DNA of 64,000 bases. Source: Spirochaetia bacterium. Lineage in GTDB: Bacteria; Spirochaetota; Spirochaetia; SZUA-6; Fen-1364. Of this stretch, positions 3,904 through 60,873 are shown piece by piece. Location of the stretch: contig JBEKQU010000011.1 of the NCBI GenBank assembly GCA_049519415.1, positions 7,538 to 71,537 of the forward strand, given 5' to 3'. Under the pieces are notes generated by a model. It did no database searches and was not told where the DNA came from. It saw only the letters and a program-made list of their open reading frames with translations. A program made the position numbers and the translations under genes. How positions within the stretch are numbered: the stretch's first letter is position 1; every line of letters begins with the position of its first letter.

Positions 3904-4261
3904 GCACACACTCCTGCGCCTCAGCTGGCGCAATCCCAGCATACACCGCCGGGAGCCAAGTCATCGATCCGTCTGTGTACCTCGTCCTTGACCTGCTGTG
4001 GGCTTCCAAGCGGCAGGACCCACTGCTATCTACACCTCCGCCCCAGAACGTGAGGTCCCGGCGGAACTCCTTTTTCAGCCGGGGATAGGGTGATGTCCTC
4101 ACGCGCTGTGTGGTCACTCTTTAATCTGGCTTCGCATAAACGTACTGCGTCGTCATGCCGAGTGCAACCAGTAGAGACGGCGCTGCTTCGATAGGCACCG
4201 TTTTCGTTTCGGGCATTTTATTTTCGGGTATGTTGCAATTCCCTACAACGTAGGGACTTAT

Positions 4262-4304
4262 ATGGGCGATACTGGGATTGAACCAGTGACTTCTACCGTG
4301 TGAA
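4262..4304. repeat. Distal att repeat (partial tRNA-Val 3' segment)
   Basis: ATGGGCGATACTGGGATTGAACCAGTGACTTCTACCGTGTGAA is identical to 17614-17656. No 5' tRNA half is adjacent. Confidence 0.9.
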
Positions 4305-4432
4305 TGTACGACTCGGCAAATGCGCCTGTTTTCCATACTAATACTGACAGATACTGGAATAGCATAAAACAAAGTAATTCGCAAGGTTCCTCCTACTGAA
4401 AGATTTTGAGGAATACCCGCGTTGCCTGAAAG

Positions 4433-4453
4433 TTGCTCACACTTTTGCTCACA
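4433..4453. repeat. Tandem TTGCTCACA repeats (candidate integrase arm-type sites), distal end
   Basis: TTGCTCACA-ctt-TTGCTCACA has a 12-bp period. The same arrangement and orientation occur at 17533-17553. Confidence 0.6.
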
Positions 4454-4580
4454 CAAGAATGAGCTGCCAAGTCATGCTGGGGAAAAGTATGCGGCAAGGC
4501 TCCTGCAGATTGATTCCAGGGCCGTCTACGCGCGTCTGGTAGGCGTCCGGTTGGCACCCGCTCACGCTTGGGCACGTGAT

Positions 4581-4670
4581 GGGCCGTAGACGCGCCGCGG
4601 GGTTGACGTGAGTTGGCAAGAGGCGGGGGAATCACCGGGGGGATATAACGTCTCTATTGCATTCTGCGGG
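4581..4670 (-). repeat. Cargo-junction repeat, copy C (most diverged)
   Basis: Plus-strand boxes GGGCCGTAGA (4581-4590) and TTCTGCGGG (4662-4670) have the same order and similar spacing as copy B. The copy lies downstream of the caspase-ankyrin stop. Confidence 0.4.
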
Positions 4671-4810
4671 CGATAGTGCGCGAGGCCAGCGCCCCGTTTG
4701 AGCGGACGCTGAGAATGTCGGCGCGAGAGGCACGCCATTGCCAGCCGTGCATGGCGTTGCTACGGTTGAATCTGCGCGCAACCCTTATCGTGTCTCGGGG
4801 TTCCAGCCAG

Positions 4811-7006
4811 CTATTGAAGAGCCTCAGGGGTCTTTGTGAGGTCCGAGTCCTTTAGTTTTGGGTTGGCAAGAATATAGTCATACGCACTCTTACCTGACAT
4901 GTCACGTGCGGTCCTATCCGCACCGTTTGCAAGAAGCAGCTTAACAACTTCGGGATTAGTGTTTCCGCTTGCTGCTGCGAGCAAGGGAGTCATTCCGGCG
5001 AAATTTCGTTGGTTGATATTTGACCCTGAGGAAACGAGAATCTTGCATACCTCCGGGTTGTCGTTATGTAAAGCGGCTTGGATCAGAGGTGTTGATCCAT
5101 CAGATAGTTTATCGTTAACCGAGGCGCCGAGTGAAATAAGCAACCTAGTTACCTCAGGGTTCTTATTGCTATCTGCGGCCTCCAATAGGGCTGTCCACCC
5201 TTTATTGTCTTTTTCGTTTAACTGTGATCCATGAGACATTAGGAACTTTATGACATCCGGGTTTGGATTATGCGAGGCTGCAGCTTGTAATGCGGTTCCA
5301 CCAAACTGTGTCTTCTCGCTTATAGAGCTGCCGGATTCAATCAGAACCTGCAACACTTCTGGACTCTGATTTCCCCAGCAAGCCTCAAGAAAGGGTGTAT
5401 AGCCCTCGGTAGTGCGGTCCGATAAGCTTGCCCCAGCACTTAGCAAGAGGCGAAGTATTTCAGGGTTTTGATTGTTGAGGGCTGCTTCCAATATAGGCGT
5501 CCAACCGCCACCAATGCGATGTTCAACTTCTGCCCCCGCTTTTAACAAAAACGAGGTCACTTCGATCATAGGATTAAACGCAACGGCTTCAAATAGTGCC
5601 GTCCAACCATCTTTTTTAGCAGTGTTTACATTGGCTCCTGATTCCAGAAGAAATTTGATACTATCCGGATTACGATTTCCCCAAGCAGCTTCGATGATCG
5701 GAGTCCAGCCTTCGTTGTCCTGTTCGTTAATATTCGCGCCTGCCTTCAAGAGTATCTGCATTACATCTGCGTTATTTCTCATAGCTGCATAAATTAGTGC
5801 CGTCTTCCCAGAACTATCTCTAATCATAACCTTTGCCCCTGCAGAAAGTAGAAGGGCAACGATGTTAGCATCAGGATTGGAAGAAGCAGCGGACATTAGT
5901 GGCGTAACATCCGCAGGCGTTTGGGCATTGACGTCAGCTCCTGCCTCGATCAAAGAACGAACCACGTCTGCATGGTTCGTGAGCGCGGCCTCATGCAGTG
6001 CGGTATAGCCAGCTTTTTCGGGTTCGTCGACTTTTGCCCCGGCCGATAGAAGTGATTTAAGAACATTCACGTCATGGTTGAAAGCAGCAGCGAAAGCAAG
6101 GGCCGTAGCGCCAAACGTCTTATCTTTCGCGTCAAGGCTCAGGCCGCTTGACAACAGAGCGTTAACTTCTTGAACCGTTCCTGTTTTTAAGATTGCGACC
6201 TCTGCATCAGATAGTGTTGGCAAGGTTCTCGGTGGGACGACGACTGCTTTCTGGGTGGGCCCCGCTAATAGCGCTTCTCCAAAGTATTGGCTGTACATAG
6301 CAGGAACTTGCATGCCATTAGTCTCAGTCTGAACCCTCGCACCCGTTCGGTTAAACACATCTCTAATGTCCAGTCCTGGAGTCGTAAGATCCTTTAGAAG
6401 CTCCGATGTAAAGATTCCGTTTCGGCCTTGGCCATCTTGCGCAACGCTTCCTGCGCTTGTGGCAAAGACTACTATGCTACCAGGTGGTTGCCTATCTACA
6501 ACCGAAAGACCGCGCGTGCCCGAGCGCGCCCAAGAGAAGGGGTTGTCGCGGCAAGCATCAAGCACCACCACGTTCAGGGAGTTGTGAGCTTCCGCCAGCA
6601 CATCAAGCACCTCCTGCGCGGAAAGCGCCTTTGATCTGAGGAAGACCTCTACAGGAATATGAGCGTCAGTAGGTATCAGGTAGTTGATTCCATTAGATTG
6701 CACTCCGTGGCCAGCGTAAAAGAAAAACCCAATAGAATCTTTCGAGGTCGAAAGCCGGTTTCCCAGGCGCACGACAGCGTCCTCCATGGTTGCAAGATCA
6801 GCGTCTGCAAGACTATCGACCTGGAAGCCCAAACTTTTCAGCGCCTCCCCGATATCGTGAGCGTCATTAGTCGGGTTCTTGAGCTTGCTCAGCTCGATAT
6901 AGTTGCCGTTCCCAACGACAAGGGCGTAGCGGGCTGATTGTCCAAAAACGGGCGGCGTGAGACTTAGCACAGCGAGCAGAACGGTGATGAGTTTCGATTT
7001 CTTCAT
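4811..7006 (-). CDS. Secreted caspase (peptidase C14)-ankyrin repeat fusion protein
   Basis: An N-terminal signal peptide (MKKSKLITVLLAVLSLTPPVFG/Q) is present. The caspase p20-like domain has YAGHG (His100) and LDACRDNPF (Cys152). About 13 ankyrin repeats of the 34-residue variant (xNxNPEV..LL.AGA) follow. RBS AGGAG lies upstream of ATG 7006. Confidence 0.9.
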   Translation of the reverse strand: MKKSKLITVLLAVLSLTPPVFGQSARYALVVGNGNYIELSKLKNPTNDAHDIGEALKSLGFQVDSLADADLATMEDAVVRLGNRLSTSKDSIGFFFYAGHGVQSNGINYLIPTDAHIPVEVFLRSKALSAQEVLDVLAEAHNSLNVVVLDACRDNPFSWARSGTRGLSVVDRQPPGSIVVFATSAGSVAQDGQGRNGIFTSELLKDLTTPGLDIRDVFNRTGARVQTETNGMQVPAMYSQYFGEALLAGPTQKAVVVPPRTLPTLSDAEVAILKTGTVQEVNALLSSGLSLDAKDKTFGATALAFAAAFNHDVNVLKSLLSAGAKVDEPEKAGYTALHEAALTNHADVVRSLIEAGADVNAQTPADVTPLMSAASSNPDANIVALLLSAGAKVMIRDSSGKTALIYAAMRNNADVMQILLKAGANINEQDNEGWTPIIEAAWGNRNPDSIKFLLESGANVNTAKKDGWTALFEAVAFNPMIEVTSFLLKAGAEVEHRIGGGWTPILEAALNNQNPEILRLLLSAGASLSDRTTEGYTPFLEACWGNQSPEVLQVLIESGSSISEKTQFGGTALQAAASHNPNPDVIKFLMSHGSQLNEKDNKGWTALLEAADSNKNPEVTRLLISLGASVNDKLSDGSTPLIQAALHNDNPEVCKILVSSGSNINQRNFAGMTPLLAAASGNTNPEVVKLLLANGADRTARDMSGKSAYDYILANPKLKDSDLTKTPEALQ

Positions 7007-7026
7007 ACTCGTCTCCTCGTTTAAGC

Positions 7027-7054
7027 ATTATACAACGCCCCCTGAGCGAGGCAA
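7027..7054 (-). promoter_or_regulatory. Sigma70-like promoter of the caspase-ankyrin gene
   Basis: The minus strand reads TTGCCT-16 nt-TATAAT, about 20 nt upstream of the RBS and ATG. Confidence 0.55.
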
Positions 7055-7160
7055 GCAATGTTAGCGGCATGTCGTGTGTGTTCCCTTTTAAGCCACTTTT
7101 CCCGTGCGTAGAAGTCCCCGGCGATTTCTGAACCTCCCGGATTTTCCCCTAGGCGTGCGT

Positions 7161-7260
7161 AGAGGGCCGCAGACGAATCGGACGTGAAATGACATACGGC
7201 AGGAGCCCTCCGCGTTGAGCCTGCGTGGCTATGTTCTCGAAAAGGGGGGTGTTTCTGCCG
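7161..7260 (-). repeat. Cargo-junction repeat, copy A
   Basis: 7161-7184 matches 10007-10030 at 22 of 24 positions. Further shared blocks are CATACGGC, CGCGTTG and GTTCTC/GTTCTG. The copy lies downstream of the three-gene operon. Confidence 0.65.
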
Positions 7261-7499
7261 CAGTACGTGACCGCTCCGCGACGGACACGATGCGGGAGAG
7301 ACCGTCACACCGTCATAGTCTTGAATAAATCAAGCCGTGATCCCCAATCAAGAGGCAGCGCTCCTCGCTTCTTGGAGGTGCGGCCGATTACCGCTGAGCG
7401 CAGCATTCGCGCACTGCGTGTCTTCGTTCCCATGGAGCGCAAGCCCGCTCCCAAGCCGTAACCGCACGCTACTATCGAACCGGAAGGATTGAGCGGAAG

Positions 7500-7916
7500 C
7501 TATATTTTCAATTCGCTCCTCTTATAGAGATAGAAGCCATTTCCCTGGGTCACATAGGACAGATTAACAAGCTTGATGAGGACTTCATCGAAAGGCAGGT
7601 TCCCTTTGATCTTCTGTGCAAGCTCATTTACATACTCAATGAACTTACTAACAATCGCCTCATCAAGCTGTACTGTAAGATCGCCTGCTTTGATTGCTTG
7701 GATTCGCATATAGAAGGCTGCATACACTGAGCTAAGAATATGATGTAGATAGACCAGCTCTGGCGTTGTTTTTGCATTGAGTGCTCGATTGACCGCCCCG
7801 AATACCGCGCTGAAATAGAACAGCTTTTCATCAAAGGGGACATTTTCTCCAAGCTTGCTCAAAACGAAATCAAGATCGGGGTCGATGATTGTCCTAGCGT
7901 CACCAGACACGACCAT
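7500..7916 (-). CDS. Hypothetical protein, third gene of the toxin/XRE operon
   Basis: ATG 7916 is preceded by a strong RBS (GAGGAGGAAATGT) embedded in the 3' end of the XRE gene, giving a 17-nt overlap. No motif was recognised. The sequence looks helical. Confidence 0.65.
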   Translation of the reverse strand: MVVSGDARTIIDPDLDFVLSKLGENVPFDEKLFYFSAVFGAVNRALNAKTTPELVYLHHILSSVYAAFYMRIQAIKAGDLTVQLDEAIVSKFIEYVNELAQKIKGNLPFDEVLIKLVNLSYVTQGNGFYLYKRSELKI

Positions 7917-8385
7917 ACATTTCCTCCTCAACAACGCCTGATTGCGGCGGGAATAGCCCGGGGCTAGCGGTTCCTATACCAACCAAAGTGTTTGTCCCTA
8001 CAAGAGTCTGTCCACTGTATGCGGCTAACGTTCCTAGTTCATGCACGCTGCTTACGGCCGATGTAATTCGGATTCCCTCAGGCGCGCGAACACCATATGA
8101 AACAGCGCGCCGCGGCCTCATTCCAACAAAGAGCTCAAAATCAATAGCGTCCGCCACTCGGCAGAGCGTAAGCAAAGTCATGTTTGACTTGCCCTGCATG
8201 AGCTGGCTGACATATGCCTTGCTCACCCTAAGACGTTCTGAGAGTTGTTTCTTGGACAGGCTTAGTGCTTTCAGCCTATTGCTTACTTGAATCGCAACAT
8301 CGATTGCGAGAGCTTCAGCCTTGTACTCTGGAGTCTTCCGCGCCTGCGCTCCCGATTCACTCCACCATCTTTGCGCGTTAATCAT
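7900..8385 (-). CDS. XRE-family HTH protein (HigA-like antitoxin candidate)
   Basis: The HTH stretch is LSKKQLSERLRVSKAYVSQLMQGKSNMTLLTLCRVADAI. There is an ATGA overlap with the upstream toxin-like gene. Confidence 0.8.
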   Translation of the reverse strand: MINAQRWWSESGAQARKTPEYKAEALAIDVAIQVSNRLKALSLSKKQLSERLRVSKAYVSQLMQGKSNMTLLTLCRVADAIDFELFVGMRPRRAVSYGVRAPEGIRITSAVSSVHELGTLAAYSGQTLVGTNTLVGIGTASPGLFPPQSGVVEEEMYGRVW

Positions 8386-8792
8386 TCATCGCTCTCCACC
8401 CACTCAGGATTTGCGTCGAACCTCTGTTTTGCTTTTATTGCTCGCCTGTATTGAGCCTTCTCCACTAAAACTGTTTTTATGAAATGCGTAGCCATGAGCA
8501 GCCTTCTATGATTCCCATAGAAAAAGCACCCGATCCTATGTCTCCCCTTCTTTAGCTCGCAAAAGAACTCGTCGCCTTCTTTCCAACAATCCAACTGTTC
8601 GTCGTTCAGAGTTTCATAGCCTTGCGTAGAAATTATCTCTATGAGGTGCCTAAAACCTCTTGCTGCAACGGATGAGTCTCTTTGACTGAAGAAATCCAAC
8701 ACCTCGGATTTCTCACCCTTCTGTAAGACATAAACGTATGTCCGTGGACCCCTTTCAATTAGTATAGCACGCATTCTGACTGGTGTCAACAT
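8382..8792 (-). CDS. RelE/ParE-superfamily toxin, phage Gp49-like (HigB-like)
   Basis: The C-terminal pattern FCELKKGRHRIGCFFYGNHRRLLMATHFIK...YRRAIKAKQRF fits Gp49/DUF891-type toxins. The toxin-first gene order is typical of HigBA. The start could be 8774. Confidence 0.65.
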   Translation of the reverse strand: MLTPVRMRAILIERGPRTYVYVLQKGEKSEVLDFFSQRDSSVAARGFRHLIEIISTQGYETLNDEQLDCWKEGDEFFCELKKGRHRIGCFFYGNHRRLLMATHFIKTVLVEKAQYRRAIKAKQRFDANPEWVESDE

Positions 8793-8887
8793 TGGTTAAG
8801 TTATAGCTTTACTCACTACCTAAGACTCCATTAACTGCCTAATCCTAAGGCATAATGATCTTAAAATCAACAGAAAAAGCGGAAACC

Positions 8888-8926
8888 AGAAGCAAAAGGG
8901 CCTCCCGCAGAAAAGCATAGGGGGCC
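8888..8926 (-). terminator. Putative rho-independent terminator after the serine recombinase
   Basis: The minus strand reads GGCCCCC-13 nt loop-GGGAGGCC (7 bp with one bulge), followed by CUUUUGCUU. Confidence 0.4.
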
Positions 8927-9188
8927 TGAAAAAAGAACACCGGCGGCCAGGAACGCGGTGAGAGGTTGGTAGGGGCATCAACCCCCGGCGACCTAGCCCT
9001 CGGCGCTTCTCATGGTCGATCAGCTCGATAAGTTACAGCGCACGAGGGGGAGAGGGTGATCGGAACACGGGGGGTCCGAATCGGCCCACATGGGCGTGCA
9101 CCCTCGCGGTAACAGAAGGTCCCTCGGGCGGAGAGGGAGGGCTCGGCCTCCTGCCTCGGCGCGCCTTCGCCTGCCGCCGTCGCCGCTG

Positions 9189-9854
9189 TCAGGCCTGCGC
9201 CATCTTGAGAAGGCGCTGTACTTGCTTCGCCGTCCAGAGTCCACCGCGCCGGGCCCGCTGTCCGGTAGCGTTCAACTCGTCTGCTATGCGCTGCAACGTG
9301 TAACCTGCCTTGCGATAGTTCACGGCGTGCCTCATGCTGCCGTTCGCTGCCTTGACTGCCTTCTCGTGCTTGGCCGCTCGGCCTTTCGCCATCGCCTCGG
9401 GAGTCAGGTTCTGAGGGTTGCCCAGCTTCTTGCCGCGTGCCTTCGCCACCGCCAGGGCAACGCGCGTCCTGTCGCTGATTGCCTTCGCCTCGCCTTGAGC
9501 CACTGCCGCGAGGATGCCGACCGTCATTTCATTCGCCTCTGGCATGTCGGCCGCGATGAACCGCACCCGCTCATCCTGTAGGCGAGTGACAAAGGACGCC
9601 TTGCGAGCTAGCCGGTCCAGCTTGGCGATTACCAGGACCGCGCCGCCTGTCTTGCACTCTGCCAGCGCCGCCGTGAGCCCTGGTCTATCGTCGTGCCTGC
9701 CGCTCTCCACGTCCTTGTACTCCGCGACGATTCCCCACCCGCGAGACTTGCACAGGGATTCGACCGACACCCGCTGCGCGTCCAGGCCGAGCCCCGATGC
9801 ACCCTGGCGCTGCGTGGAAACCCTGTAGTACGCGATTGCCTTTTCTCTTTTCAT
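9189..9854 (-). CDS. Serine recombinase (resolvase/invertase family)
   Basis: The catalytic N-terminus is AYYRVSTQRQ. The resolvase core is VLVIAKLDRLAR. A C-terminal HTH (GYTLQRIADELN) is present. Confidence 0.9.
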   Translation of the reverse strand: MKREKAIAYYRVSTQRQGASGLGLDAQRVSVESLCKSRGWGIVAEYKDVESGRHDDRPGLTAALAECKTGGAVLVIAKLDRLARKASFVTRLQDERVRFIAADMPEANEMTVGILAAVAQGEAKAISDRTRVALAVAKARGKKLGNPQNLTPEAMAKGRAAKHEKAVKAANGSMRHAVNYRKAGYTLQRIADELNATGQRARRGGLWTAKQVQRLLKMAQA

Positions 9855-9864
9855 GTTCTGCCCT

Positions 9865-9910
9865 CACTCTTGACATACTTTATACCTTCGTTTAAATAAT
9901 GTCAAGAGTG
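9865..9910 (-). promoter_or_regulatory. Recombinase promoter embedded in a perfect 12-bp inverted repeat
   Basis: CACTCTTGACAT (9865-9876) and ATGTCAAGAGTG (9899-9910) flank a 22-bp AT-rich spacer. The minus strand reads TTGACA-17 nt-TAAAGT, then GAGGG and ATG 9854. Confidence 0.55.
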
Positions 9911-10006
9911 TTCCATATTTTTTCGGGAGTGTCTATTAACGGCAGAGTTCCCGAGCTCTCGTTCTGTGCTTAACATTAAAGGGTCTTTTCTCTTCGCCCC
10001 GAGAGC

Positions 10007-10120
10007 AGAGGGCCGTAGATGAATCGGACGAAAATCTCGTGCGGCATACGGCTTCTGCGTTGGACCTAACGCCTAGCCTGCAAAACGGTGCCCTGTTCTG
10101 CGGGAAGGCGGGTAGTGGCG
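10007..10120 (-). repeat. Cargo-junction repeat, copy B
   Basis: See copy A. Plus-strand boxes are GGGCCGTAGA (10010-10019) and TTCTGCGGG (10096-10104). The copy lies downstream of the ankyrin gene stop and upstream of the recombinase promoter. Confidence 0.65.
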
Positions 10121-10206
10121 GGAAACGTGCTTAATGGTAGCCCCAGGATGAAAACGCCGGGGTCTGCCCTATGTGGAGGGGTTCCCGCTTGTGGAATCCT
10201 TCTGGC

Positions 10207-12603
10207 CTACTTTGATGCTTCTTCGAGTTGCTGATAGGCGTCAGTGCCCTTTAGCGCCGCATTGTTCAGAGCATAATCGAAGGCTGTCTTGCCCTGGAGG
10301 TCTTTAGCTTTCCCGTCCGCGCCGGCTTTCAGCAGCATGGTGATCACTGCGGGGTTCTGATTGCGCACGGCTGCGAGCATGAGCGGAGTGGCGCCATATT
10401 TGGGATCTCGCACGCTGAGGTCCGCACCCGCCAAAAGAAGCGCCGCAATGACCTTAGGGTTTTGGTTGCCCATGGCCGCGAGCATTAGCGCAGTCGCGCC
10501 GTGCGTATCCCGCGCGTTAACGTCTGAGCCGCCCCCCACGAGCGCCGTGATCACTTCGGGGATTTGGTTGAACGCCGCAGCATTCATCAGCGCGGTCATG
10601 CCGTCGTTGTTCTGTGCTTCAAAGTCCGCACCGGCTTTCAGAAGCGCGGTGACTACCGCAGGGTTCTTGTTGCTCGAGGCAGCGAGCATCAGCGGGGTAT
10701 TGCCATACTTGTCCTGCGCCTTGAGGTCCGCCCCTGCCCTAAGGAGTATGGCGATAACCTCGGAGTTCTGGTTCTTGCTTGCGGCGTGCATCAGCGCGGT
10801 CCCACCGTTATTATCCCGCGCCTTGAGGTCCGCTCCGGCCTTAAGGAGCGCGGCAACCAACTCGGAGTTTTGGTTTGTCTCGGCTGCGTACATAAGCGCT
10901 GTCATGCCGTTGCTGTCCCGTGCCTTGGGGTCCGCCCCTGCCTTAAGAAGCGTGATAACCACTTCGGGGTTCTTGTTCGTATCAACTGCGTACATAAGCG
11001 CGCTCAAGCCGTTGTTGTCCTCCGCCTTGAGGTTGGCCCCGGCCCTCAGGAGCGTAGTAATCACGTCGGGATTCTGATTGTTTCCCGCGGCTGCTAAAAG
11101 CGGTGTCCCGCCGTTCTTGTCATGAGCGTTCACATCCGCGCCGGCCTCAAGGAGCATGGTCACCACCATGAGATTCTGGTTATAGCTTGCAGCATGCATC
11201 AGCACGGTCCCGCCGTTATTGTCCCGAGCGTTTAGGTCAGCGCCAGCATTTAGGAGTATCGTGATCAACTCGGGGTTCGGATTGTCGGCTGCGGCAGACA
11301 TAAGCGCGGTCAAGCCTATTTTGTCGCGTGCCTTTATGTCTGCCCCAGCCCTTAAAAGTGCATTGACCACATCAACCTTTTGGTTTTTCCCAGCGGCGTA
11401 CATTAGCGCACTCAAGCCATTCTTGTCCTGCGCCTGGAGGTCCGCTCCTGCCTTAATCAGCGCCGAGATCACTTCCGCTTGAGGGTTGCTCATTGCAGCT
11501 TGCATCAGTGCAGTCATTCCGTCTTTATCCCGCCCCTCGATATTTGCTCCAGCCTGTACGAGTATGGCGATCACTGCAGGGTTCGGGTTGTTCGCGGCGG
11601 CAGCCATTAATGCGGTAGAGCCGTCGTTATTCCGAGCGTTGGGATCTGCCCCTGCCTTAAGAAAAGCGTCGACCACCTCCGAACTCTTGTTTGTTTGGGC
11701 TGCATACATCAGCGCAGTTAGACCATGCTTGTCCTGGGCCTTTAGGTTTGCCCCAGCCCCAAGGAGCGTGGTAATAACTTCTGAGCTTTGGTTTGTCTGG
11801 GCTGCGTACATAAGTGCAGTCGCACCATCCTTGTCACTAGCGTTGACATCTGCACCAGCCGTCAGGAGTATGGTGATTACTTCGGGGTTCTGGTTAACCA
11901 GAGCTGCAACCATCAACGCGTTCATGCCGTCCTTGCTCTGAGCCTTGAGGTCTGCGCCGGCCTTCAGAAGGGTGGTGATTACCGCTGGGTTCTGGTTCCA
12001 TCCGGCGGCCACCATCAACGGCGTTAAGTTGTCTTTATTCCGCGCCTTGAGGTTTGCCCCGGCCCTAAGGAGCGCGGTAATCACTTCTGAGTTTGGGTTT
12101 GTCTGGGCTGCGGACATAAGTGGGGTCTGGCCGAACTTGTCCCGGCTCTCAAGATTTGCGCCAGCATTTAAGAGCGCGGCAATCACGTCGGGACTCGAAT
12201 TGTTCGCGGCAGCATGATCTAACGGGGTCGCGCCGTTCTTGTCTTGGCTCTCAATGCTTGCCCCGGCGTTCAGGAGCGTAGTGATCACGTCGGGATTCTT
12301 GGAGTACCTAGCGGCCCACGATAGCACTTGCAGTCCGAAACTGTAGTCCTTGGCATAAAGGTCCGCTCCAGAATTTAGAAGCGTGGTGATCACTGCGGGG
12401 TTCGGGTTGAACCCGGCAGCAGTCATCAGCGGGGTAGAACCATCCTTTTTCCGAGCATTCACGTCTGCGCCCTGGTTGACAGCCGCTTGTATTTGCGCGG
12501 GTGTCCCGGTCTTTACCAGCTCAAAGAAGTCTGTCGTCTGCGCAAACGCCGAAGCTGCCAAAAGGACCGCAAGGACTACAGCAACCATGATTCGCTTTCT
12601 CAC
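10207..12603 (-). CDS. Secreted ankyrin-repeat protein (about 22 repeats)
   Basis: A signal peptide (VAVVLAVLLAASAFA/Q) is present. About 22 tandem 34-residue ankyrin repeats (G.TALM.AA..N.NPEVI..LL.AGAD) follow. The C-terminal cap is homologous to that of the caspase fusion. GTG start with GAGGG RBS. Confidence 0.9.
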   Translation of the reverse strand: MRKRIMVAVVLAVLLAASAFAQTTDFFELVKTGTPAQIQAAVNQGADVNARKKDGSTPLMTAAGFNPNPAVITTLLNSGADLYAKDYSFGLQVLSWAARYSKNPDVITTLLNAGASIESQDKNGATPLDHAAANNSSPDVIAALLNAGANLESRDKFGQTPLMSAAQTNPNSEVITALLRAGANLKARNKDNLTPLMVAAGWNQNPAVITTLLKAGADLKAQSKDGMNALMVAALVNQNPEVITILLTAGADVNASDKDGATALMYAAQTNQSSEVITTLLGAGANLKAQDKHGLTALMYAAQTNKSSEVVDAFLKAGADPNARNNDGSTALMAAAANNPNPAVIAILVQAGANIEGRDKDGMTALMQAAMSNPQAEVISALIKAGADLQAQDKNGLSALMYAAGKNQKVDVVNALLRAGADIKARDKIGLTALMSAAADNPNPELITILLNAGADLNARDNNGGTVLMHAASYNQNLMVVTMLLEAGADVNAHDKNGGTPLLAAAGNNQNPDVITTLLRAGANLKAEDNNGLSALMYAVDTNKNPEVVITLLKAGADPKARDSNGMTALMYAAETNQNSELVAALLKAGADLKARDNNGGTALMHAASKNQNSEVIAILLRAGADLKAQDKYGNTPLMLAASSNKNPAVVTALLKAGADFEAQNNDGMTALMNAAAFNQIPEVITALVGGGSDVNARDTHGATALMLAAMGNQNPKVIAALLLAGADLSVRDPKYGATPLMLAAVRNQNPAVITMLLKAGADGKAKDLQGKTAFDYALNNAALKGTDAYQQLEEASK

Positions 12604-12617
12604 TTTGTGCCCTCGCT

Positions 12618-12646
12618 ATTTTACCGCCTCACGTCCACGCTGTCAC
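12618..12646 (-). promoter_or_regulatory. Sigma70-like promoter of the ankyrin gene
   Basis: The minus strand reads GTGACA-17 nt-TAAAAT immediately upstream of the RBS and GTG 12603. Confidence 0.45.
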
Positions 12647-12708
12647 GTGTCGCGCCGTCTCGCTTGCGGGGCATAGTGCAACGTTCGGGGGCCTATCGTA
12701 CTTTGACA

Positions 12709-13350
12709 TCAGTCGCAACGCCTACGGCTGGGGATATATGTCACGCTGCCCGGCATGAGGGGCCAGGGGAAAAGCCGTTCTCCCGGCTTTCGGCAATGGT
12801 GACAGACGGGTCGATGCATGCCAGCCGCGTTTACATCGAAAAGAAGGCTATGGATGTCGCCTCCGACATACTGCCGACAGCGCGAGCAGGAAGCACCGTT
12901 CGGACCGCTCTTGATCTCGATGTCGGGAATGTCCCGCGAGCTGTCTCGCACGCTTCCGAGGGGCAAGTCCGAGCGATGGGTACCCAGAGAATCGGCCGAT
13001 TCCGTATGACTGCCCTGGTCCACGTCGCCAGCGACGCCGATTCCCTCGTTTCCCTGGTCCGTAGAGGGCTCCGGGTCTGTGGTAGTCTGGTAGGGCTCCG
13101 GGTGGTTACGGTGCTCTGGCGGCGCTCGCCGCTTCCGTTTCTGGACGATCTTTTCAAGTTTGGCCGCGAGAGGGCCAACAATCCAGCGCCCGACCGTGGT
13201 CCTGGGTATGCCAGTCGAAAAGGCGATCTGTCGGATGCTGGCGCCATCAGCGTAGTAGGCGAGGATGTCTCTCTCCTGCTCAGCCGTGAGGCGTAGTATA
13301 CTCGCTTTGTGCTTTTTTCTCCGTGCGCGAGTGCCATTTTCTCGGTTCAT
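12709..13350 (-). CDS. HTH protein with C-terminal Cys4 zinc-ribbon-like motif
   Basis: The resolvase/IS630-type HTH is LTAEQERDILAYYADGASIRQIAFSTGIPRTTVGRWI. The C-terminus carries CSRC...CHHC. The start is uncertain (13350 ATG or an upstream TTG). Confidence 0.6.
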   Translation of the reverse strand: MNRENGTRARRKKHKASILRLTAEQERDILAYYADGASIRQIAFSTGIPRTTVGRWIVGPLAAKLEKIVQKRKRRAPPEHRNHPEPYQTTTDPEPSTDQGNEGIGVAGDVDQGSHTESADSLGTHRSDLPLGSVRDSSRDIPDIEIKSGPNGASCSRCRQYVGGDIHSLLFDVNAAGMHRPVCHHCRKPGERLFPWPLMPGSVTYIPSRRRCD

Positions 13351-13372
13351 CTTTGGCCCATCCGGCCCATTC

Positions 13373-13897
13373 TCAGCTTTCCTCCGGGGCCTCAAGGTCT
13401 ACCCCGAAGCGATCGCAGTAGTCTGCAATCCTGTTAAATGACCAACCTTGAAGGCAGAGATTCAGTATCCCCCGCTGCTGGGGAGTGAAACGGGTGTCTT
13501 CCTCATCTTCCAGCGCATCCTGGAAGGCTTTTAGGAAGATTAGTTCCTGCATTCGGTCGTAGAGTGCTAGTGCTTTAGGACCACTGAGGGCTGCTTGTTC
13601 TCTGTCTGCGGTTTTAATTTGGTCTAGATATCTCATTGTCCACTGTTCACGGCGAGTTTGCTTGTACCGCTTTCCGAAGTCGTACAAGTTCTCGCTCGCC
13701 CATCGGCGCATAGTCCGCAGTCCGGGAGCGCCCGGGATCTTGGCGACGTCCACGAGTGAAAGGTCGTATCTAGAACAGAGATCGAGCACCAGGTCCATGT
13801 TTGCCCGGATACGTTTTTCTGCCCGCAGAGAGTAACTCTCCCAGGAGATACGGCCAACAATGCGCTCTGGTACCGGGTCGGGTCTACTGTCCGGCAT
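13373..13897 (-). CDS. HTH protein resembling phage small terminase subunits (tentative)
   Basis: The pattern LSLVDVAKIPGAPGLRTMRRWASENLYDFGKRYKQTRREQ resembles the HTH plus RW..E..F...Y..AR motif of many TerS proteins. ATG 13897 has a GAGGGAG RBS. Assignment is by eye only. Confidence 0.55.
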   Translation of the reverse strand: MPDSRPDPVPERIVGRISWESYSLRAEKRIRANMDLVLDLCSRYDLSLVDVAKIPGAPGLRTMRRWASENLYDFGKRYKQTRREQWTMRYLDQIKTADREQAALSGPKALALYDRMQELIFLKAFQDALEDEEDTRFTPQQRGILNLCLQGWSFNRIADYCDRFGVDLEAPEES

Positions 13898-13953
13898 GTT
13901 TTGCTCCCTCGCTTTTCTCGCCTTCATGCGGTCCGAGTCAGTAGCCGCTTCGC

Positions 13954-14274
13954 CTATGCCATCACCTTTCCGTGTGTACGGATAATGCGATACGCATCGC
14001 CTCTTGGAAAGCAGAGACAATTCCGGCAATCCGGAAGCGCCTCATAGATGACCTCGTAGGATAGTTCGTAGGCTTCTGAGGTGCGGAGTTCAGGGTTTTC
14101 GGCCTCCCATCCGACGAGCCCAAGAAGGACCGGCTTCAGCTCATTTACCCAAAAGTTGTTCGCGCAGAAGCTCGGATTCGACTTGTCATCACGAATCGAG
14201 CGGGCCCGGTAGTACAATGCCCGCAATCGCGGCTCCTTCTGGCATAGTTCGTTGAATGTGTCCATCTTTTTCAT
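13954..14274 (-). CDS. Hypothetical protein (106 aa)
   Basis: ATG with GAGAGGGA RBS, in the same strand and operon context as the island core. No motif was recognised. Confidence 0.55.
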   Translation of the reverse strand: MKKMDTFNELCQKEPRLRALYYRARSIRDDKSNPSFCANNFWVNELKPVLLGLVGWEAENPELRTSEAYELSYEVIYEALPDCRNCLCFPRGDAYRIIRTHGKVMA

Positions 14275-14326
14275 AGCCTGTATCCCTCTCGAAGTACGGG
14301 TAACAACGGTAACAGTAGTAACGGCG

Positions 14327-15367
14327 TCATCCTGTATAGCCGTTATTCGTTATCGCGTTACCGTTGTTATCGCTGTTTCGGTACTTCCCTGCGTTCTCCA
14401 GGACCAAACCAGCGTTTTTCATCTTGAAGAGAAGCTGCCGAACCCTGTCCGATGTGCTGTCGAGGTGTAGGGCAATCTCCTTCGGCGCAAGCGCACCTTC
14501 CTTGCTCAATAGGTCTACGATTTGCCGCCGCTCCTGACTCAGCATGACATCGCGAGCAGATCCTTCGCACTTCCAGCCTCCGGGAAGTGAAAAAGATAGT
14601 GCAAGCTCCTGCTCCTCAATATCGCGGCCAGTGGCCGCCAACACAGCTTCTTGCGTGCCGCGGGCCCTCTTGAGTCCCAAGACTGTGTCCGTGGTGGAGC
14701 TGTAAGCCGTCGAGCCGATAATGCCGTCCACGAAGTCCTCTCGCGCGGCCTTGCCATAATGATGAATGAGGAGGAATGCAGTCTTGAATTTCGATGAGAG
14801 TTGTTGAAAGCCTGCGAGGTAGTCGCCGACCACGCCGTAATCATTGTGGTCTGCTTCGGTAGGGAAAATGCGCGCCACAACGTCTACAACACAGAGCCGC
14901 ACAGTTCCGACCCCGATGTATTCAAGAAGGTCACCTATGGCGTCCAGTGCTTCGCGGCCTTTCGCCCATTCCGTGAAGAAACGCAATTTCGCACTCCATA
15001 ACGAACCGAGTAGGTCGGATCGGCTTTTCAGTCTACGGAGAGAGTCTTCAAGGGCCAAATAGAGCACTTCCCCTCGTTCGATCTCGCGGCCAAACAGCGG
15101 CGTCCCTTCCGATATCGCATTGGCAATCTGTAATGCAAGCCAACTCTTCCCGATCTTAGGACGGCCGGCGAGGATTGCTACGCCTCCCTCGATGAGAAGT
15201 CCGGGTACGAGCCATTTGGGAGGGTCGAAGTTCATCATCTCCAGATCGGCCGCCGTGGTCATCTTGGCGTAGATGTGCGATAGTCGATCCGAATTGACAG
15301 AAGCCTGCCTATGATTCGCCTCAATAGTGGTCGCTACATTTCTTTCGTGCCAGTCAGCGGAGCTCAT
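14327..15367 (-). CDS. RecA-like AAA ATPase (AAA_25 / RepA-type replicative helicase-like) with C-terminal winged-helix
   Basis: Walker A is GRPKIGKS. The LYLALED and CVVDV motifs are present. The C-terminus (LSKEGALAPKEIALHL...RVRQLLFKM) looks like a wHTH. ATG 15367 overlaps the xis-like stop as ATGA. Confidence 0.75.
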   Translation of the reverse strand: MSSADWHERNVATTIEANHRQASVNSDRLSHIYAKMTTAADLEMMNFDPPKWLVPGLLIEGGVAILAGRPKIGKSWLALQIANAISEGTPLFGREIERGEVLYLALEDSLRRLKSRSDLLGSLWSAKLRFFTEWAKGREALDAIGDLLEYIGVGTVRLCVVDVVARIFPTEADHNDYGVVGDYLAGFQQLSSKFKTAFLLIHHYGKAAREDFVDGIIGSTAYSSTTDTVLGLKRARGTQEAVLAATGRDIEEQELALSFSLPGGWKCEGSARDVMLSQERRQIVDLLSKEGALAPKEIALHLDSTSDRVRQLLFKMKNAGLVLENAGKYRNSDNNGNAITNNGYTG

Positions 15368-15570
15368 GCCACTCCTGCCTTTGCCTTCGGACTGGTCAGC
15401 GGCGCGACGCGACGGGCGTTCCGCCATTCTATCAACTCATCCCGGTCAAACACGACGCGCCTTCCGAGCTTGTAGAACGGTATCGAGCGCGTTAGGCATA
15501 GCTTTCGCATTGTTGGCGGCTTCAGCGATAGGAGCTCGGCGGCCTGGCGAATATCAAGGGATACACTCAT
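15364..15570 (-). CDS. Excisionase/AlpA-like HTH protein
   Basis: 68 aa. The stretch AAELLSLKPPTMRKLCLTRSIPFYKLGRRVVFDRDELIEW is typical of MerR-like excisionase (HTH_17) proteins. Confidence 0.75.
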   Translation of the reverse strand: MSVSLDIRQAAELLSLKPPTMRKLCLTRSIPFYKLGRRVVFDRDELIEWRNARRVAPLTSPKAKAGVA

Positions 15571-15623
15571 ACCCTACTAATACGCGGCTCTATCAGAGTC
15601 CGCGCACTTTCGGTGATATATTG

Positions 15624-16352
15624 CTACTTTTTCTTTCGGAAATTCTGGGCCGGCGGGACCCGGGCCAGCCAGCCAACCTTGACCCAATCCCTGAGGGTGC
15701 TCTCTGATATTTCGGTCATGCGCGCAACACGGGACAGCACCGCTGTCTTTGTAAGCTTGACGGTCCCGTCATTCTGTTCCCTCGCTCCCCTGAAGGCCAG
15801 CATTTCCTTTATGACTTGGCGGCGATTACCCTTCGCCCATTCTTCGGCCGCTGTGTTAATCCCGTTTACGGCTTCCTGGGCCTTTTTTACTTTCGGGTCG
15901 TCCGCTTTCGATCCATAGCTGCGCTTTCGCCTCTTCGCCTCCCGTGCTTTTTTCAGCGTTCCTAACTGCTCCTTGCCTCTTTCTATCAGGGGAGCATGGG
16001 CCCGTTTCCGCAGCCGTTCATCCTGTGAAATATCCCTACATCGAGAAGCCGCGTCTTCAGCGCTGAGAAGCTCAGCAGAGGGGGCCTCGTTGGAGCACCC
16101 CCCGCTCACGAAGTCAGCGGCCTCCTTGGATAGTTGCTTAGGGCTCGATTCGGTGAACAACTCGCTGAGCCGATTTCCAGGGAGCGGTCTGTCCGGATCG
16201 TTCTCGCGCTCGACCTCTGCGGCCTCGGCTTTCAACTCTTCATCGCTCTTTGAGGATTTCCATTCTCCCGTTGCGGCCCGCCGTTCACGTTCAGCGATCC
16301 TGCGCTGTATTTCTCGGGCCTTGTCGTCAGGGAGTCCAGTGGTGTCCTTCAT
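15624..16352 (-). CDS. Hypothetical charged protein with C-terminal HTH
   Basis: ATG 16352 overlaps the integrase stop as ATGA. The protein is Lys/Glu/Arg-rich. The C-terminus (LSRVARMTEISESTLRDWVK) is HTH-like. Confidence 0.6.
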   Translation of the reverse strand: MKDTTGLPDDKAREIQRRIAERERRAATGEWKSSKSDEELKAEAAEVERENDPDRPLPGNRLSELFTESSPKQLSKEAADFVSGGCSNEAPSAELLSAEDAASRCRDISQDERLRKRAHAPLIERGKEQLGTLKKAREAKRRKRSYGSKADDPKVKKAQEAVNGINTAAEEWAKGNRRQVIKEMLAFRGAREQNDGTVKLTKTAVLSRVARMTEISESTLRDWVKVGWLARVPPAQNFRKKK

Positions 16353-17497
16353 ATACGGCCTTCCGCCACGGCGAGCGCATCCTTGAAGTGCTCGTCGCCG
16401 AATGCAGTGTATCGGTCCGTCATGGCGGGGCTCTTGTGCCCGGTCAGCGCCCGGATTTTCGAGTCCTCGACCCCGCCGGAGCGCAGCATCGTGTTGAACC
16501 AGCGCCGCCACGAATGCACAACGATTCCACGGCGTTTACGTTCCGCGTCTGTGATCTTCATGGTCGATAGCGCATCATGAAGTCCTTTGGCGATGAAGCT
16601 CTGCGCCATCGGAGTGTGCGCTGTTCGTCCGTAGAATACCAAGCTTTCGGGATCATCCTTGAAGCGAGATTCCTCGATGATCTCCCGGAGGTGAAGGGCA
16701 GTCTTTGCCGGCAGTGGCACGACGCGAGCGCTATCCCATTTCGGAGCCTTCAGGCCTGCCTTGCGTTCCCATGCGTGGACAACGGCAAGGTGGTTGCTCT
16801 GAACGTCTCCGACTTGAAGGGCTTGAAGCTCGCCGAGTCGGAGCCCAGTCGAAGCAAGTACAAGGTGCGCCGTGAACATCCGCTTGTCGCCCGCCCATAA
16901 CTTCCCGATTGTCTTTTCCGCGAAGAGCTTCTTAACTTCGGCGTTCGTGAGGATGCCCCGGTCTGCCGGCTTCGCTTTGAACATCCCGACTGCCTCCGCC
17001 GGATTGCGCGGGATCAACTCCGCGTCGCGGGCCTCACGGAACATGAGCTTCAATACGGTGAGGATGCTGTTGACGGTTCCTGCCGCGAGCCCATCGTCAA
17101 GGAGCTTCATCCGCCATTTTTCGACTGCCGGGCGGGTAATCTCCGAGAGCTTCATCTTGCCGAACGTGGGGAGGATGTAAGTCTCGATGTACTTCCGTCT
17201 GCCCTCGGCGTAGGTCCGTCCTATGCTCTTGCCCTCGGCGAGCCTCCGTTTGATGTAGTCGCACTTTCCCCAGATAAAGAAGTTGGCCGAGAATTGCTTC
17301 AGAGTGATATTGCCGGCAGAGGATGCAGGCACCTTGCCGCTTTCGATCTGAGCGAGCGCCCAGGCCTCGGCTGCGGCCCTGCTCGTCTGCTCCGACGACA
17401 CGGCCGTCATTCGCTTGCCCTGGTAGTCGCGGAACATGACGTAAAAGATTACCCCGTGCTTCATCTTCCGCTTGAACATCGTGTAGGGCCTATGCAT
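16349..17497 (-). CDS. int: Tyrosine integrase (phage integrase family) with N-terminal arm-binding-type domain
   Basis: The C-terminal catalytic region is HSWRRWFNT...LTGHKSPAMTDRYT. The N-terminus (GVIFYVMFRDYQGKR) resembles arm-binding domains. GGGAGG RBS. The gene is adjacent to the tRNA. Confidence 0.9.
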   Translation of the reverse strand: MHRPYTMFKRKMKHGVIFYVMFRDYQGKRMTAVSSEQTSRAAAEAWALAQIESGKVPASSAGNITLKQFSANFFIWGKCDYIKRRLAEGKSIGRTYAEGRRKYIETYILPTFGKMKLSEITRPAVEKWRMKLLDDGLAAGTVNSILTVLKLMFREARDAELIPRNPAEAVGMFKAKPADRGILTNAEVKKLFAEKTIGKLWAGDKRMFTAHLVLASTGLRLGELQALQVGDVQSNHLAVVHAWERKAGLKAPKWDSARVVPLPAKTALHLREIIEESRFKDDPESLVFYGRTAHTPMAQSFIAKGLHDALSTMKITDAERKRRGIVVHSWRRWFNTMLRSGGVEDSKIRALTGHKSPAMTDRYTAFGDEHFKDALAVAEGRI

Positions 17498-17532
17498 GGC
17501 TACCTCCCTGAAATCCTTGAAACAGAGGGGAT

Positions 17533-17553
17533 TTGCTCACAGATTTGCTCACA
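17533..17553. repeat. Tandem TTGCTCACA repeats (candidate integrase arm-type sites), int-proximal end
   Basis: TTGCTCACA-gat-TTGCTCACA lies 60 bp inside the att core, with the same period and orientation as 4433-4453. Confidence 0.6.
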
Positions 17554-17613
17554 CGGGGTTTTGGCGAATAGTTGAAAAGTCATGTAATTCATTATAGACA
17601 AAGGAAAAGATAG

Positions 17614-17656
17614 ATGGGCGATACTGGGATTGAACCAGTGACTTCTACCGTGTGAA
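17614..17656. repeat. Proximal att repeat (within the intact tRNA-Val)
   Basis: Identical to 4262-4304. It covers the tRNA from the 3' anticodon-stem strand to the discriminator base, plus 1 nt. Confidence 0.9.
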
Positions 17657-17686
17657 GGTAGCACTCTGCCGCTGAGTTAATCGCCC
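17615..17686 (-). tRNA. tRNA-Val (anticodon CAC)
   Basis: A 72-nt cloverleaf folds by hand. Acceptor is GGGCGAT/ATCGCCC and D stem is ACTC/GAGT. Anticodon stem CTACC/GGTAG carries loop TTCACAC. T stem ACTGG/CCAGT carries loop TTCAATC. CCA is not encoded. Confidence 0.9.
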
Positions 17687-32700: not shown

Positions 32701-33467
32701 TCCGATCGGGGGCTCCCGCAGACAATGAAAGCAACGCGCTCTTCGCCGTCCGAGGGAAGGCTGAGCGTATACTGCATGCAGGAGCAGCCCCTGCTAGGCG
32801 TCTCAGGGCCTCCCGCGCGCCCTGCCAGGCTGCCTTCACCGATCATGTGAGGAGCAAAGTCACCCACCCGGAATGCTTCCGCCGCCCGCGTGCCTGCGCA
32901 AAGGGCTGTCCACTCGGGGTATGTTTCATCGTGGGCGACAATACCGGGCAGCGACGGATCAAACCGGGCAGTGTTCCTGCCTCCCTGCCGCAGGGGCCAG
33001 CCGATGCTGAGATGAGACTGGAATTCCGCGAAAAGGCGCAGCGTCCGCGGCAGATCGGATTCGTTGTGCAGCACAAGCTCGACAACGATGGCCGGGCTCT
33101 GGAGGGGCACCCATACCGTCTTGGTGATGCTCAGGTAGGGATGCGAGCCGAACTGGTAATAGATTTCGCTGCAACCCACCTGCCGCGTGTAGCGTTTTGC
33201 ATTGCGTTCCACGTGCGCGAGGCCGTTCGCGTCGTCCCAGATATGGAAGTGCACGTAGTCAGCCAAACGGAGCGGCTCTGCCCAGATGCCTTCCGTGCCG
33301 CCCCCGGGGGGATTGACGATCTCCTTTGACACCGCCCGCAGGCCGCCGAAACTGCCGTCGAGCCTCCAGATGACGTGGGCCTGACGTCCCGCTTCCGCAA
33401 ATAGGTTGTCAAGGTCGCGCGAATAGGAAAAGTATTCAGTGAGCAGCGGCGTTTTTACGTCCCGCAT
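29796..33467 (-). CDS. Large multidomain glycoside-hydrolase-like protein ((alpha/alpha)6 six-hairpin core, Ig-like middle, GATase1-like C-terminal domain)
   Basis: ATG 33467 with an AGGAGGAG RBS. The core resembles amylo-alpha-1,6-glucosidase/GDE_C-type hydrolases (GEIWHE..., DTNGDGLLENGPEG...). The middle resembles CARDB/NEW3 repeats. The C-terminus (LVLTSDQHD...FVHEGGRLLFF) resembles class-I glutamine-amidotransferase-like folds. All assignments are by eye. Confidence 0.7.
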   Translation of the reverse strand: MRDVKTPLLTEYFSYSRDLDNLFAEAGRQAHVIWRLDGSFGGLRAVSKEIVNPPGGGTEGIWAEPLRLADYVHFHIWDDANGLAHVERNAKRYTRQVGCSEIYYQFGSHPYLSITKTVWVPLQSPAIVVELVLHNESDLPRTLRLFAEFQSHLSIGWPLRQGGRNTARFDPSLPGIVAHDETYPEWTALCAGTRAAEAFRVGDFAPHMIGEGSLAGRAGGPETPSRGCSCMQYTLSLPSDGEERVAFIVCGSPRSESEAREIERSVGSRLAELKEEKRAHYLRLFQDTAVLDSPSYVFNKAFLWAKLGTEDFKHDDPRLGLLFFAGFPAYNFYFASDSMLILRGSLAFGDFEDARAMMRTIVRYQATTQGRDTLPGEIWHEMSTTGDRISPNFAGFLFPGLLREFHDWTGDARFLQEMYPHARAVIDWGFLMDTNGDGLLENGPEGEMADSASEDRNVERSHYHVQTQWLDALHEGVRLAGLVGDAESATRWQAAIDRLLPLVNRFYWNEKARYFEETLRPDGCLDTSAKGYPNLDPTMVDEGKAAATARLLLEEEAYLSDIESFQARKEFEKTFGTHRSYMSWYVIERGRRAGLLYKAHQPDPAYQALEAIAGSPFHWTTPGLWPEVWAVDEPTTLRARGCFHQAWTGSHGFLYPFMEGLLGLRPDAASHALTLDPHLPPHWPRLSLRRLRLGEGWFDLECEQGEGWRRLCVRNATDAGLTVTFGFALPLMVRLRELRINGKERDLQAVQAHQTPTDFHVFAEAKAEPGAECASELRWEPSTMMFEIASGSAAVGSRPTQQPVFLSRCIPGSTCQVEVQVRNNGFEQVRAELQLILPPDWARVPGPVRPLVLAPNEKKDVAFALSVPAAIAEGYATLRVRLLGDPTLLMARTAYLPVFRSLAPSIDARQVARPGLPYAVQVPVTNLSALAQTVSARIDWPADWKETENQAVLADLEPGQNGSLRLTAVPTGSGDAKIRVLVTCAAPKDEWQLSHNVRVVPREIPLVLYSGFLRCPLPNGDGLEVVNLPANYALRKPHVFSELLAATDLVLTSDQHDAVFAPDQIRALERFVHEGGRLLFFCSWSAPWGRGFQDTFGSIAIGRFPDMLPLRMRKGITHARRVRVTEEGKTALTDIAWDTIPPFDHNAAELRPGARLLAETEKGEPLIAEWIFGKGRVMAIAIDCFGFESYVEGLSFEWWPERPRMFRRGVQGLMERTARSSLP

Positions 33468-33548
33468 CCGTTGTCTCCTCCTGCCGGCCTTCTTCGATGG
33501 AACAAATGCCCAGTGGAGAATAAGCGGAAAATGTATTGGACGCAACGG

Positions 33549-33577
33549 TTGACTTACAATGAATCTACACGTAATAT
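33549..33577 (+). promoter_or_regulatory. Sigma70-like promoter of vapBC, positioned for a leaderless transcript
   Basis: TTGACT-17 nt-TAATAT; ATG 33586 begins 9 nt after the -10 element. Confidence 0.5.
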
Positions 33578-33585
33578 GTGTTGGG

Positions 33586-60859: not shown

Positions 60860-60873
60860 ACAGGAGGTGCGGG

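Follow-up and report, generated by a model that had tools for sequence, protein, structure and literature searches.

Among the cysteine peptidases of family C14, the characterised members other than the animal caspases cleave after Arg or Lys, owing to an acidic pocket, and the orthocaspase MaOC1 of Microcystis must cleave itself to become active (PMC5756287). Many partner domains C-terminal to the catalytic one are on record from surveys of prokaryotic homologues. In the 2012 survey of 671 prokaryotic caspase homologues, with 71 partner domains, ankyrin repeats go unmentioned in the main text, and probable signal peptides, in the form of N-terminal hydrophobic segments, were counted in 46 of the 671 sequences (surveys PMC3501461, PMC5756287). 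Here we describe a gene (4811-7006, reverse strand) in a stretch of 64,000 nucleotides (nt) from a Spirochaetia bacterium (assembly GCA_049519415.1, contig JBEKQU010000011.1, positions 7,538 to 71,537), which as a whole we call the window and whose numbering is used for all coordinates. The gene is complete and encodes a protein of 731 amino acids (aa), hereafter the caspase-ankyrin protein, with a leader, a C14 caspase-like domain, a linker and an ankyrin array. This product is a C14 caspase homologue fused to an ankyrin solenoid, and very likely exported. An earlier sequence-only reading of the locus had proposed the export leader, the intact caspase domain and the ankyrin array, and had placed the gene as cargo on a tRNA-integrated island beside an ankyrin-only neighbour; all of this anatomy was borne out.

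We note that the caspase-ankyrin protein is an orthocaspase in the broad sense, with a DxCR motif and a fold that are closest to the paracaspases; the DxCR motif is also found in many prokaryotic homologues (PMC5756287). As in the orthocaspases, a prokaryotic C14 domain with a His-Cys dyad is followed by C-terminal accessory sequence and has an acidic pocket that predicts a basic P1 residue. A separate p10 of the metacaspase type may be lacking too: the head superposes as one compact domain on the MALT1 caspase domain, and paracaspases are described as p10-less (PMC5756287). The differences lie in the ankyrin tail, where MaOC1 has no extra domain (PMC5756287), and in the clade to which the head belongs, whose named members are all spirochaetes and nearly every member of which has an export leader.

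The paracaspase MALT1 (PDB 3V4O, 3UO8) is the best solved match by both sequence and fold, with YAGHG and LDxCR motifs in common and two acidic S1 residues aligned. The window protein differs from it in being bacterial and, by prediction, exported. The death domain and Ig domains of MALT1 were not found in the protein, for which Pfam shows C14 and Ank families only, and the activation of MALT1 by CARD-BCL10 scaffolds has no counterpart. A further comparison may be made with the gingipains (C25) and clostripain (C11), Arg/Lys-specific proteases of clan CD with adhesin or binding tails, which are mentioned as secreted members of the caspase fold (PMC3482391). These also combine a Sec leader, a caspase-fold head with basic P1 (predicted in our case) and C-terminal binding modules; they differ in family, in their tails and in their secretion routes, and Pfam gave no C25 or C11 match in the window protein, C14 being the only peptidase family found. 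The likeness is one of mechanism, by analogy, and not of family.

The Pfam profile Peptidase_C14 (PF00656) matches residues 26-239 (6290-6931, reverse strand) with E=1.5e-36 and a score of 126.7 bits, above the cut-off of 21.4, and positions 2-225 of the 233 in the profile are covered. Within this domain, His100 (codon 6707-6709) lies in a YAGHG motif and Cys152 (codon 6551-6553) in LDACR, and the two motifs align with YAGHG and LDMCR of MALT1. In the same sequence alignment D48 and D150 stand opposite two aspartates of MALT1, which we take to be its S1-pocket residues D365 and D462. MALT1 paracaspases were the only strong sequence matches among solved structures; the protein on its own gave E of about 1e-16, and a profile of its family 2.7e-25. 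In the profile search of the PDB the alignment extended over no more than the N-terminal two thirds of the caspase domain, so a third pocket residue could not be placed by sequence. All five of H100, C152, D48, D150 and D191 are present in each of the 32 caspase-bearing homologues aligned (32/32), and a wider alignment of 74 sequences shows H100, C152, W159, R161 and R165-G166 to be invariant, the last three elements forming a loop that sits directly after the catalytic Cys152.

An AlphaFold 2 (AF2) model of residues 23-263, built with 74 homologues, has a mean predicted local distance difference test score (pLDDT) of 90.9 and a predicted template modelling score (pTM) of 0.89. Foldseek searches with this head-only model returned MALT1 at template modelling (TM) scores of 0.79-0.81 and 26-28% identity over about 239 columns, which take in all of the MALT1 caspase domain; caspases 7, 9 and 11 ranked next, at TM scores of about 0.65-0.70. 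The same search with the full-length model gave ankyrin and DARPin matches only and carries no information on the head. Since the head superposes on the whole of the MALT1 caspase domain, it is a complete caspase fold and not a p20 fragment: it forms a single compact domain, with the ankyrin tail C-terminal to it. The sequence-only reading, which had called the domain p20-like with an intact dyad, was thus right about the dyad, whose residues are aligned and conserved, and too narrow about the domain. The profile and structure checks which that reading had called for support Peptidase_C14, Ank and the caspase fold, with the dyad aligned to the MALT1 motifs.

Leader, ankyrin tail and relatives

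The open reading frame (ORF) at 4811-7006 comprises 731 codons and is the sole long ORF at that position in the ORF list and its translations. It runs from an ATG at 7006-7004 to a stop codon at 4811-4813, with a GAGGAG Shine-Dalgarno sequence 6 nt ahead of the ATG, an in-frame stop 21 nt upstream and no in-frame start further up. The first 22 residues (6941-7006, reverse strand), MKKSKLITVLLAVLSLTPPVFG followed by Q, read as a Sec-type signal peptide. They begin with MKKSK, which has three lysines, continue with an 11-residue hydrophobic core, LITVLLAVLSL, and end in TPPVFG ahead of Gln23, with a Pro-Pro break and V-F-G just before the Gln. This is the n-h-c layout of a signal peptide, and, with no Cys and hence no lipobox, the protein is not a lipoprotein. 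In the full-length AF2 model the leader is a separate, low-confidence helix at residues 4-15.

The assignment combines this reading of the N-terminus with a simple hydrophobicity test, by which 159 of 172 homologues have a hydrophobic leader before the start of the caspase domain; in the relatives the leader ends are A-x-A-like, for instance FGQ, AQ or AE. The leader thus appears to be a family feature under selection, and the signal peptide proposed in the sequence-only reading agrees with all of this. Because the leader is kept across the family, export of the caspase-ankyrin protein is very likely. The prolyl-tRNA synthetase (ProRS) of the host is 81-87% identical to proteins named 'Spirochaetia bacterium'. 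As the host is an uncultured, diderm member of the Spirochaetia, the default destination of an exported protein would be the periplasm, and we infer that the protein sits in the spirochaete periplasm or beyond it, at the cell surface or released.

Head and tail are joined by a linker of residues 240-264 (6215-6289, reverse strand), which contains K252 and R260 and is predicted to be flexible or disordered, the full-length AF2 model having a pLDDT below 50 at residues 251-263. The tail itself, residues 265-731 (4814-6214, reverse strand), is an ankyrin solenoid by Pfam (Ank_2, E=1.5e-86), by repeat register, and by the AF2 and Foldseek results. An N-cap (265-298) is followed by 12 full repeats, with starts at residues 299-671 and a spacing of 33 or 34, and by a C-cap (705-731); the earlier count of about 13 repeats agrees with 12 plus two caps. 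The repeats have the motif G-x-T-A/P-L...N-x-N-P-E-V...G-A and are modelled as paired helices with pLDDT of 95-98, and the Foldseek neighbours of the array are DARPins and ankyrin-B/R. A W or Y stands between the conserved G and T in six of the 12 repeats; we take this to be the target-contact position of designed ankyrin binders. No repeat of the ankyrin-only protein encoded on the same island, described below, has an aromatic residue there.

The head belongs to a very large family. A search with its first 300 residues matches 42,505 representatives of clusters made at 50% identity when E<=0.001 is allowed and 12,896 when E<=1e-30 is required, and the close relatives that carry an organism name are all spirochaetes (Spirochaetia, Rectinemataceae, Rectinema, Treponema, Alkalispirochaeta). 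The two closest heads in species-representative genomes, at 72-75% identity by tblastn, come from Spirochaetia metagenome-assembled genomes of peat or fen; the full caspase-ankyrin architecture is absent from the species-representative genomes scanned, which otherwise gave only unrelated ankyrin proteins. On the same head are found FGE-sulfatase tails, which are the commonest, and TPR, Sel1, PEGA, LamG/laminin-G, DUF1566, fn3, Big_2, periplasmic-binding and Ank domains. Ankyrin repeats occur in only 5 of the 304 caspase proteins retrieved (P0122, P0123, P0125, P0019 and P0029), and nine relatives (P0211, P0213, P0221, P0231, P0258, P0260, P0275, P0281 and P0290) have two caspase domains in one chain. 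An identical 731-aa product was called on four metagenome contigs, with the same neighbour genes on all three that are among the matches listed.

The five ankyrin-bearing relatives share with the window protein a leader, the same variant of ankyrin repeat and a caspase head that is about 63% identical. They differ in that only the window protein joins head and array directly, with 12 repeats. Four of them have a PEGA-like beta domain of about 100 residues between head and repeats, and in these a hidden Markov model (HMM) of the repeat, derived from the window protein, picks up no more than 2-5 repeats; in P0029 the order is reversed, to leader, Ank and caspase. The closest heads, at 74-79% identity, carry FGE-sulfatase or periplasmic-binding-protein tails, compared with only about 63% for the Ank-fused relatives. 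A head nearer to FGE-sulfatase-tailed proteins than to Ank-tailed ones points to an independent ankyrin fusion. As far as the sequences indicate, such fusions arose at least three times, and the window version, with its direct junction and 12 repeats, would be an event of its own.

The caspase-ankyrin protein is consequently best described as a rare, and not a unique, tail variant of a large uncharacterised family of exported caspase homologues. The sequence-only reading had presented the architecture as singular. In this it went too far, given five other metagenomic caspase-ankyrin proteins and a head family of at least 12,896 clusters at 50% identity with interchangeable tails. Its statement that it knew of no characterised protein with the combination of signal peptide, caspase and ankyrin repeats is supported: our literature searches returned none, nor did they turn up a paper that deals with exported caspases of spirochaetes or with fusions of caspase and ankyrin repeats. 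As a separate observation, contig JBEKTX010000146 (2113-6820) of a peat Spirochaetia metagenome-assembled genome holds four tandem caspase paralogues, 39-79% identical to the window head, and the same genome encodes the reverse-order P0029.

Proposed mechanism and rival readings

The reading that we favour, and consider moderately probable, is that the caspase-ankyrin protein is an exported C14 cysteine endopeptidase, an orthocaspase with basic P1, whose ankyrin solenoid selects its partners or substrates. The protein would be exported by Sec, and signal peptidase I would remove the leader at about the bond between G22 and Q23, releasing the enzyme into the periplasm or beyond. There the His100/Cys152 dyad, beside an acidic S1 pocket formed by D48, D150 and probably D191, would cleave after Arg or Lys. 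This specificity is probable in view of the alignment of D48 and D150 to the pocket aspartates of MALT1 and of the presence of D191 in 32/32 homologues. Self-processing is also probable, as in MaOC1; candidate sites are R161 and R165 in the invariant loop and K252 and R260 in the linker. The 12-repeat solenoid, tethered by the linker, would bind partners and so decide which protein is cleaved or where the enzyme is located.

Several points weigh against this reading. The loop with R161 and R165 after Cys152 is the least confident part of the model, and D191 is only a putative counterpart of E500, the third S1-pocket residue of MALT1. The full-length AF2 model shows no confident contact between head and tail. 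Target capture by the array is suggested by analogy with what ankyrin arrays generally do; the array might equally serve as an autoinhibitor, or be a product that is set free.

The last of these possibilities leads to the alternative that survives best, although we consider it unlikely. The head might be a releasing peptidase that cuts its own linker after export and so frees the ankyrin array as the real effector, for instance as a binder or inhibitor of an extracytoplasmic or foreign protein. A constant N-terminal head combined with variable C-terminal modules, and a disordered linker that carries K252 and R260, would suit such a scheme, as would the activity of MaOC1 only after self-cleavage. 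Moreover, Zhang et al. 2012 describe releasing peptidases of the caspase-like kind, and also ankyrin repeats, from Sec-dependent polymorphic toxins, in the Sec-exported forms of which caspase-like processing domains sit just upstream of variable C-terminal modules (PMC3482391). The tails of the present family, however, are binding or adhesion folds and not toxin domains. Where a polymorphic toxin would have a C-terminal toxin domain and then an immunity gene, the caspase-ankyrin protein ends in a capped ankyrin array, no immunity-type gene follows the ORF, and the att repeat of the island comes next. The head is N-terminal and not internal, and strict conservation of the S1 pocket across thousands of tails would suit a protease acting on other proteins at least equally well.

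Less probable still, in our view, is that the protein is a factor directed at eukaryotes and acquired by horizontal transfer, the array binding some protein of a grazing protist or of a host for the protease to cleave, in the manner of gingipains or the ankyrin effectors of Legionella. Ankyrin-rich bacterial proteomes do track host association, with the Spirochaetia among the richest, and the 12 repeats make a long array compared with a bacterial average of 4-6 (PMC3932732); the gene is also low-GC cargo on a mobile island. Against this, a specialised secretion system or translocation signal is nowhere encoded in the window, the Sec leader being all that is present; the nearest relatives stem from metagenome-assembled genomes of peat and fen, and the rest of the family has tails that are not eukaryote-like. 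Endopeptidase action on partners chosen by the array, in the periplasm or beyond, remains the reading that we prefer, and two further alternatives depend on the surroundings of the gene.

The tRNA-Val island and its neighbour genes

The caspase-ankyrin gene lies in a tRNA-integrated genomic element of about 13.3 kb, recognised by a tRNA gene, a far-end repeat of the 3' part of that tRNA and an adjoining tyrosine integrase. ARAGORN places a tRNA-Val(cac) gene at 17615-17686, and together with the proximal att repeat (17611-17669) this end of the element spans 17611-17686 on the reverse strand. The distal att repeat (4259-4317), which like the proximal one came from a repeat search, is an incomplete duplicate of the tRNA's 3' part and forms the island end nearest to the caspase-ankyrin gene. 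The two copies, 59 nt long and in direct orientation, are 92% identical, share an identical core of 43 nt and lie 13,352 nt apart. The tyrosine integrase (16349-17497, reverse strand), with Pfam Phage_integrase and SAM-like N-terminal domains, adjoins the tRNA. With these three features the sequence-only reading of the gene as cargo on a tRNA-integrated element holds.

The island also encodes an AAA_25 protein (14327-15427, reverse strand) with matches to phage primase/helicase families and a winged-helix region at its C-terminus. Taken with the integrase and with the absence of phage structural genes from the island, it suggests a small integrative element, possibly satellite-like. The element further encodes the ankyrin-only protein (10207-12603, reverse strand), a serine recombinase (9189-9854) and, immediately upstream of the caspase-ankyrin gene, a group of three short ORFs that overlap one another (136, 161 and 144 aa, the second with HTH_3) and are laid out like toxin-antitoxin genes (7500-8792, reverse strand). 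The two small ORFs flanking the HTH_3 gene had no Pfam, PHROG or PADLOC match. A likeness of ORF 8382-8792 to a Gp49/HigB-type toxin is a guess that no profile supports. More generally, neither the caspase-ankyrin protein nor the small neighbour ORFs could be assigned to a specific family by PADLOC, PHROGs or NCBIfam.

Upstream of the caspase-ankyrin gene (7013-7054, reverse strand) stand a promoter-like site, TTGCCT and TATAAT separated by 16 nt (7054-7027), and the GAGGAG ribosome-binding site (7018-7013). The near-consensus promoter of the sequence-only reading is real as a match, scoring 10/12 against the consensus. The consensus scan found only five such sites across the region against 2.7+/-1.9 in shuffles, and the site is for this reason a pattern match that gives no evidence of function.

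The GC content is 0.551 inside the island and 0.616 outside, and the caspase-ankyrin gene is clearly foreign cargo. The island is itself a mosaic, with a GC content of 0.51 for 4318-9100 and 0.574 for the integrase-proximal part (9101-17610), and the recombinase lies at the junction. A compositional mosaic with a recombinase at the junction suggests an older element that gained the caspase-ankyrin module afterwards, and such a later addition is probable. A metagenome search with the island integrase returned three short contigs that were uninformative on cargo. Elsewhere in the window two more low-GC patches (0.53-0.55 against about 0.62), at about 33000-35000 and 60000-62000, may be other foreign insertions.

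The ankyrin-only protein has 798 aa, a leader of its own (MRKRIMVAVVLAVLLAASAFA followed by Q) and a Pfam Ank_2 match at E=9e-204, which confirms the neighbour that had been proposed. It holds about 21-22 repeats of the same 34-residue variant; the repeat HMM from the caspase-ankyrin protein finds 21 domains. To the caspase-ankyrin tail it is 41% identical, with the same cap sequences. We considered whether the tail might be a recent duplicate of this neighbour and rejected this on account of the identity of only 41% and a very different codon composition.

One might speculate that the two proteins are a protease and its inhibitor, with the exported ankyrin-only protein binding and restraining the enzyme in the periplasm. 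Both have leaders and lie on the same island, both are built of a common 34-residue repeat variant with shared caps at 41% identity, and a Bdellovibrio ankyrin protein is described as shielding the cell from its own secreted endopeptidases (PMC4686830). The two genes, however, are separated by four ORFs, the recombinase among them, and the GC content at third codon positions (GC3), 0.44-0.56 for the caspase-ankyrin gene against 0.66 for the ankyrin-only gene, implies separate histories. At the four other loci examined in which a caspase is fused to ankyrin repeats, no ankyrin-only neighbour was present. We therefore regard this pairing as very unlikely. The earlier suggestion of a protease regulated by its ankyrin-only paralogue is correspondingly weak, in view of the intervening ORFs and the strongly different GC3.

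Nor do mobility and an ankyrin-only partner form a general rule, as the sequence-only reading had raised. The four relatives lie among ordinary genes; no recognisable mobile element was found at these loci, one of which adjoins an integrase fragment and nothing more of that kind.

Weakest of all, and highly improbable, is an anti-phage effector of the caspase-like/CHAT kind on a defence island, for which one could cite mobile-island cargo near an HTH (helix-turn-helix) regulator and matches to the PADLOC models 'caspase', 'Ankyrin' and PDC-M72A, but those matches reflect generic domain similarity ('caspase' at only 43 bits), the NCBIfam model caspase_w_EACC1 reaches 52.8 bits where its cut-off is 140, the vicinity contains no sensor, gasdermin, TIR or CRISPR partner, and the conserved export leader takes the protease out of the cytoplasm, on which ground the sequence-only reading had rightly set this role aside.

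Probably exported caspase homologues of spirochaetes

Bacterial caspase homologues are usually discussed as cytoplasmic proteases of cell death or defence. The branch to which the caspase-ankyrin protein belongs is very large, unstudied and apparently built for export, and its members join the same conserved catalytic head to binding tails of dozens of kinds. The present protein is a rare domain combination and not a new kind of system; to a specialist, a bacterial caspase homologue with a repeat tail would be no surprise, and no new mechanism is indicated yet.

A bolder proposal, to which we give little credence, is that the island encodes a two-part extracytoplasmic weapon or shield. The Arg/Lys protease would be steered by the aromatic-lined groove of its ankyrin array to a single foreign or envelope protein, for instance one of a protist grazer, a competitor or a phage receptor, and the ankyrin-only neighbour would serve as its cognate inhibitor or decoy. 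If true, this would for the first time give a functionally defined role to the exported spirochaete caspase homologues, which number in the thousands, and would be an example of target specificity swapped by the exchange of tails.

Whatever its role, the ankyrin-tailed copy offers a convenient point of entry for study, as it combines a small and bounded mobile element with an intact active site, a simple linker and a well-understood binding fold. It could serve to ask what the exported caspases of spirochaetes cleave, and whether it is the tail that sets the target.

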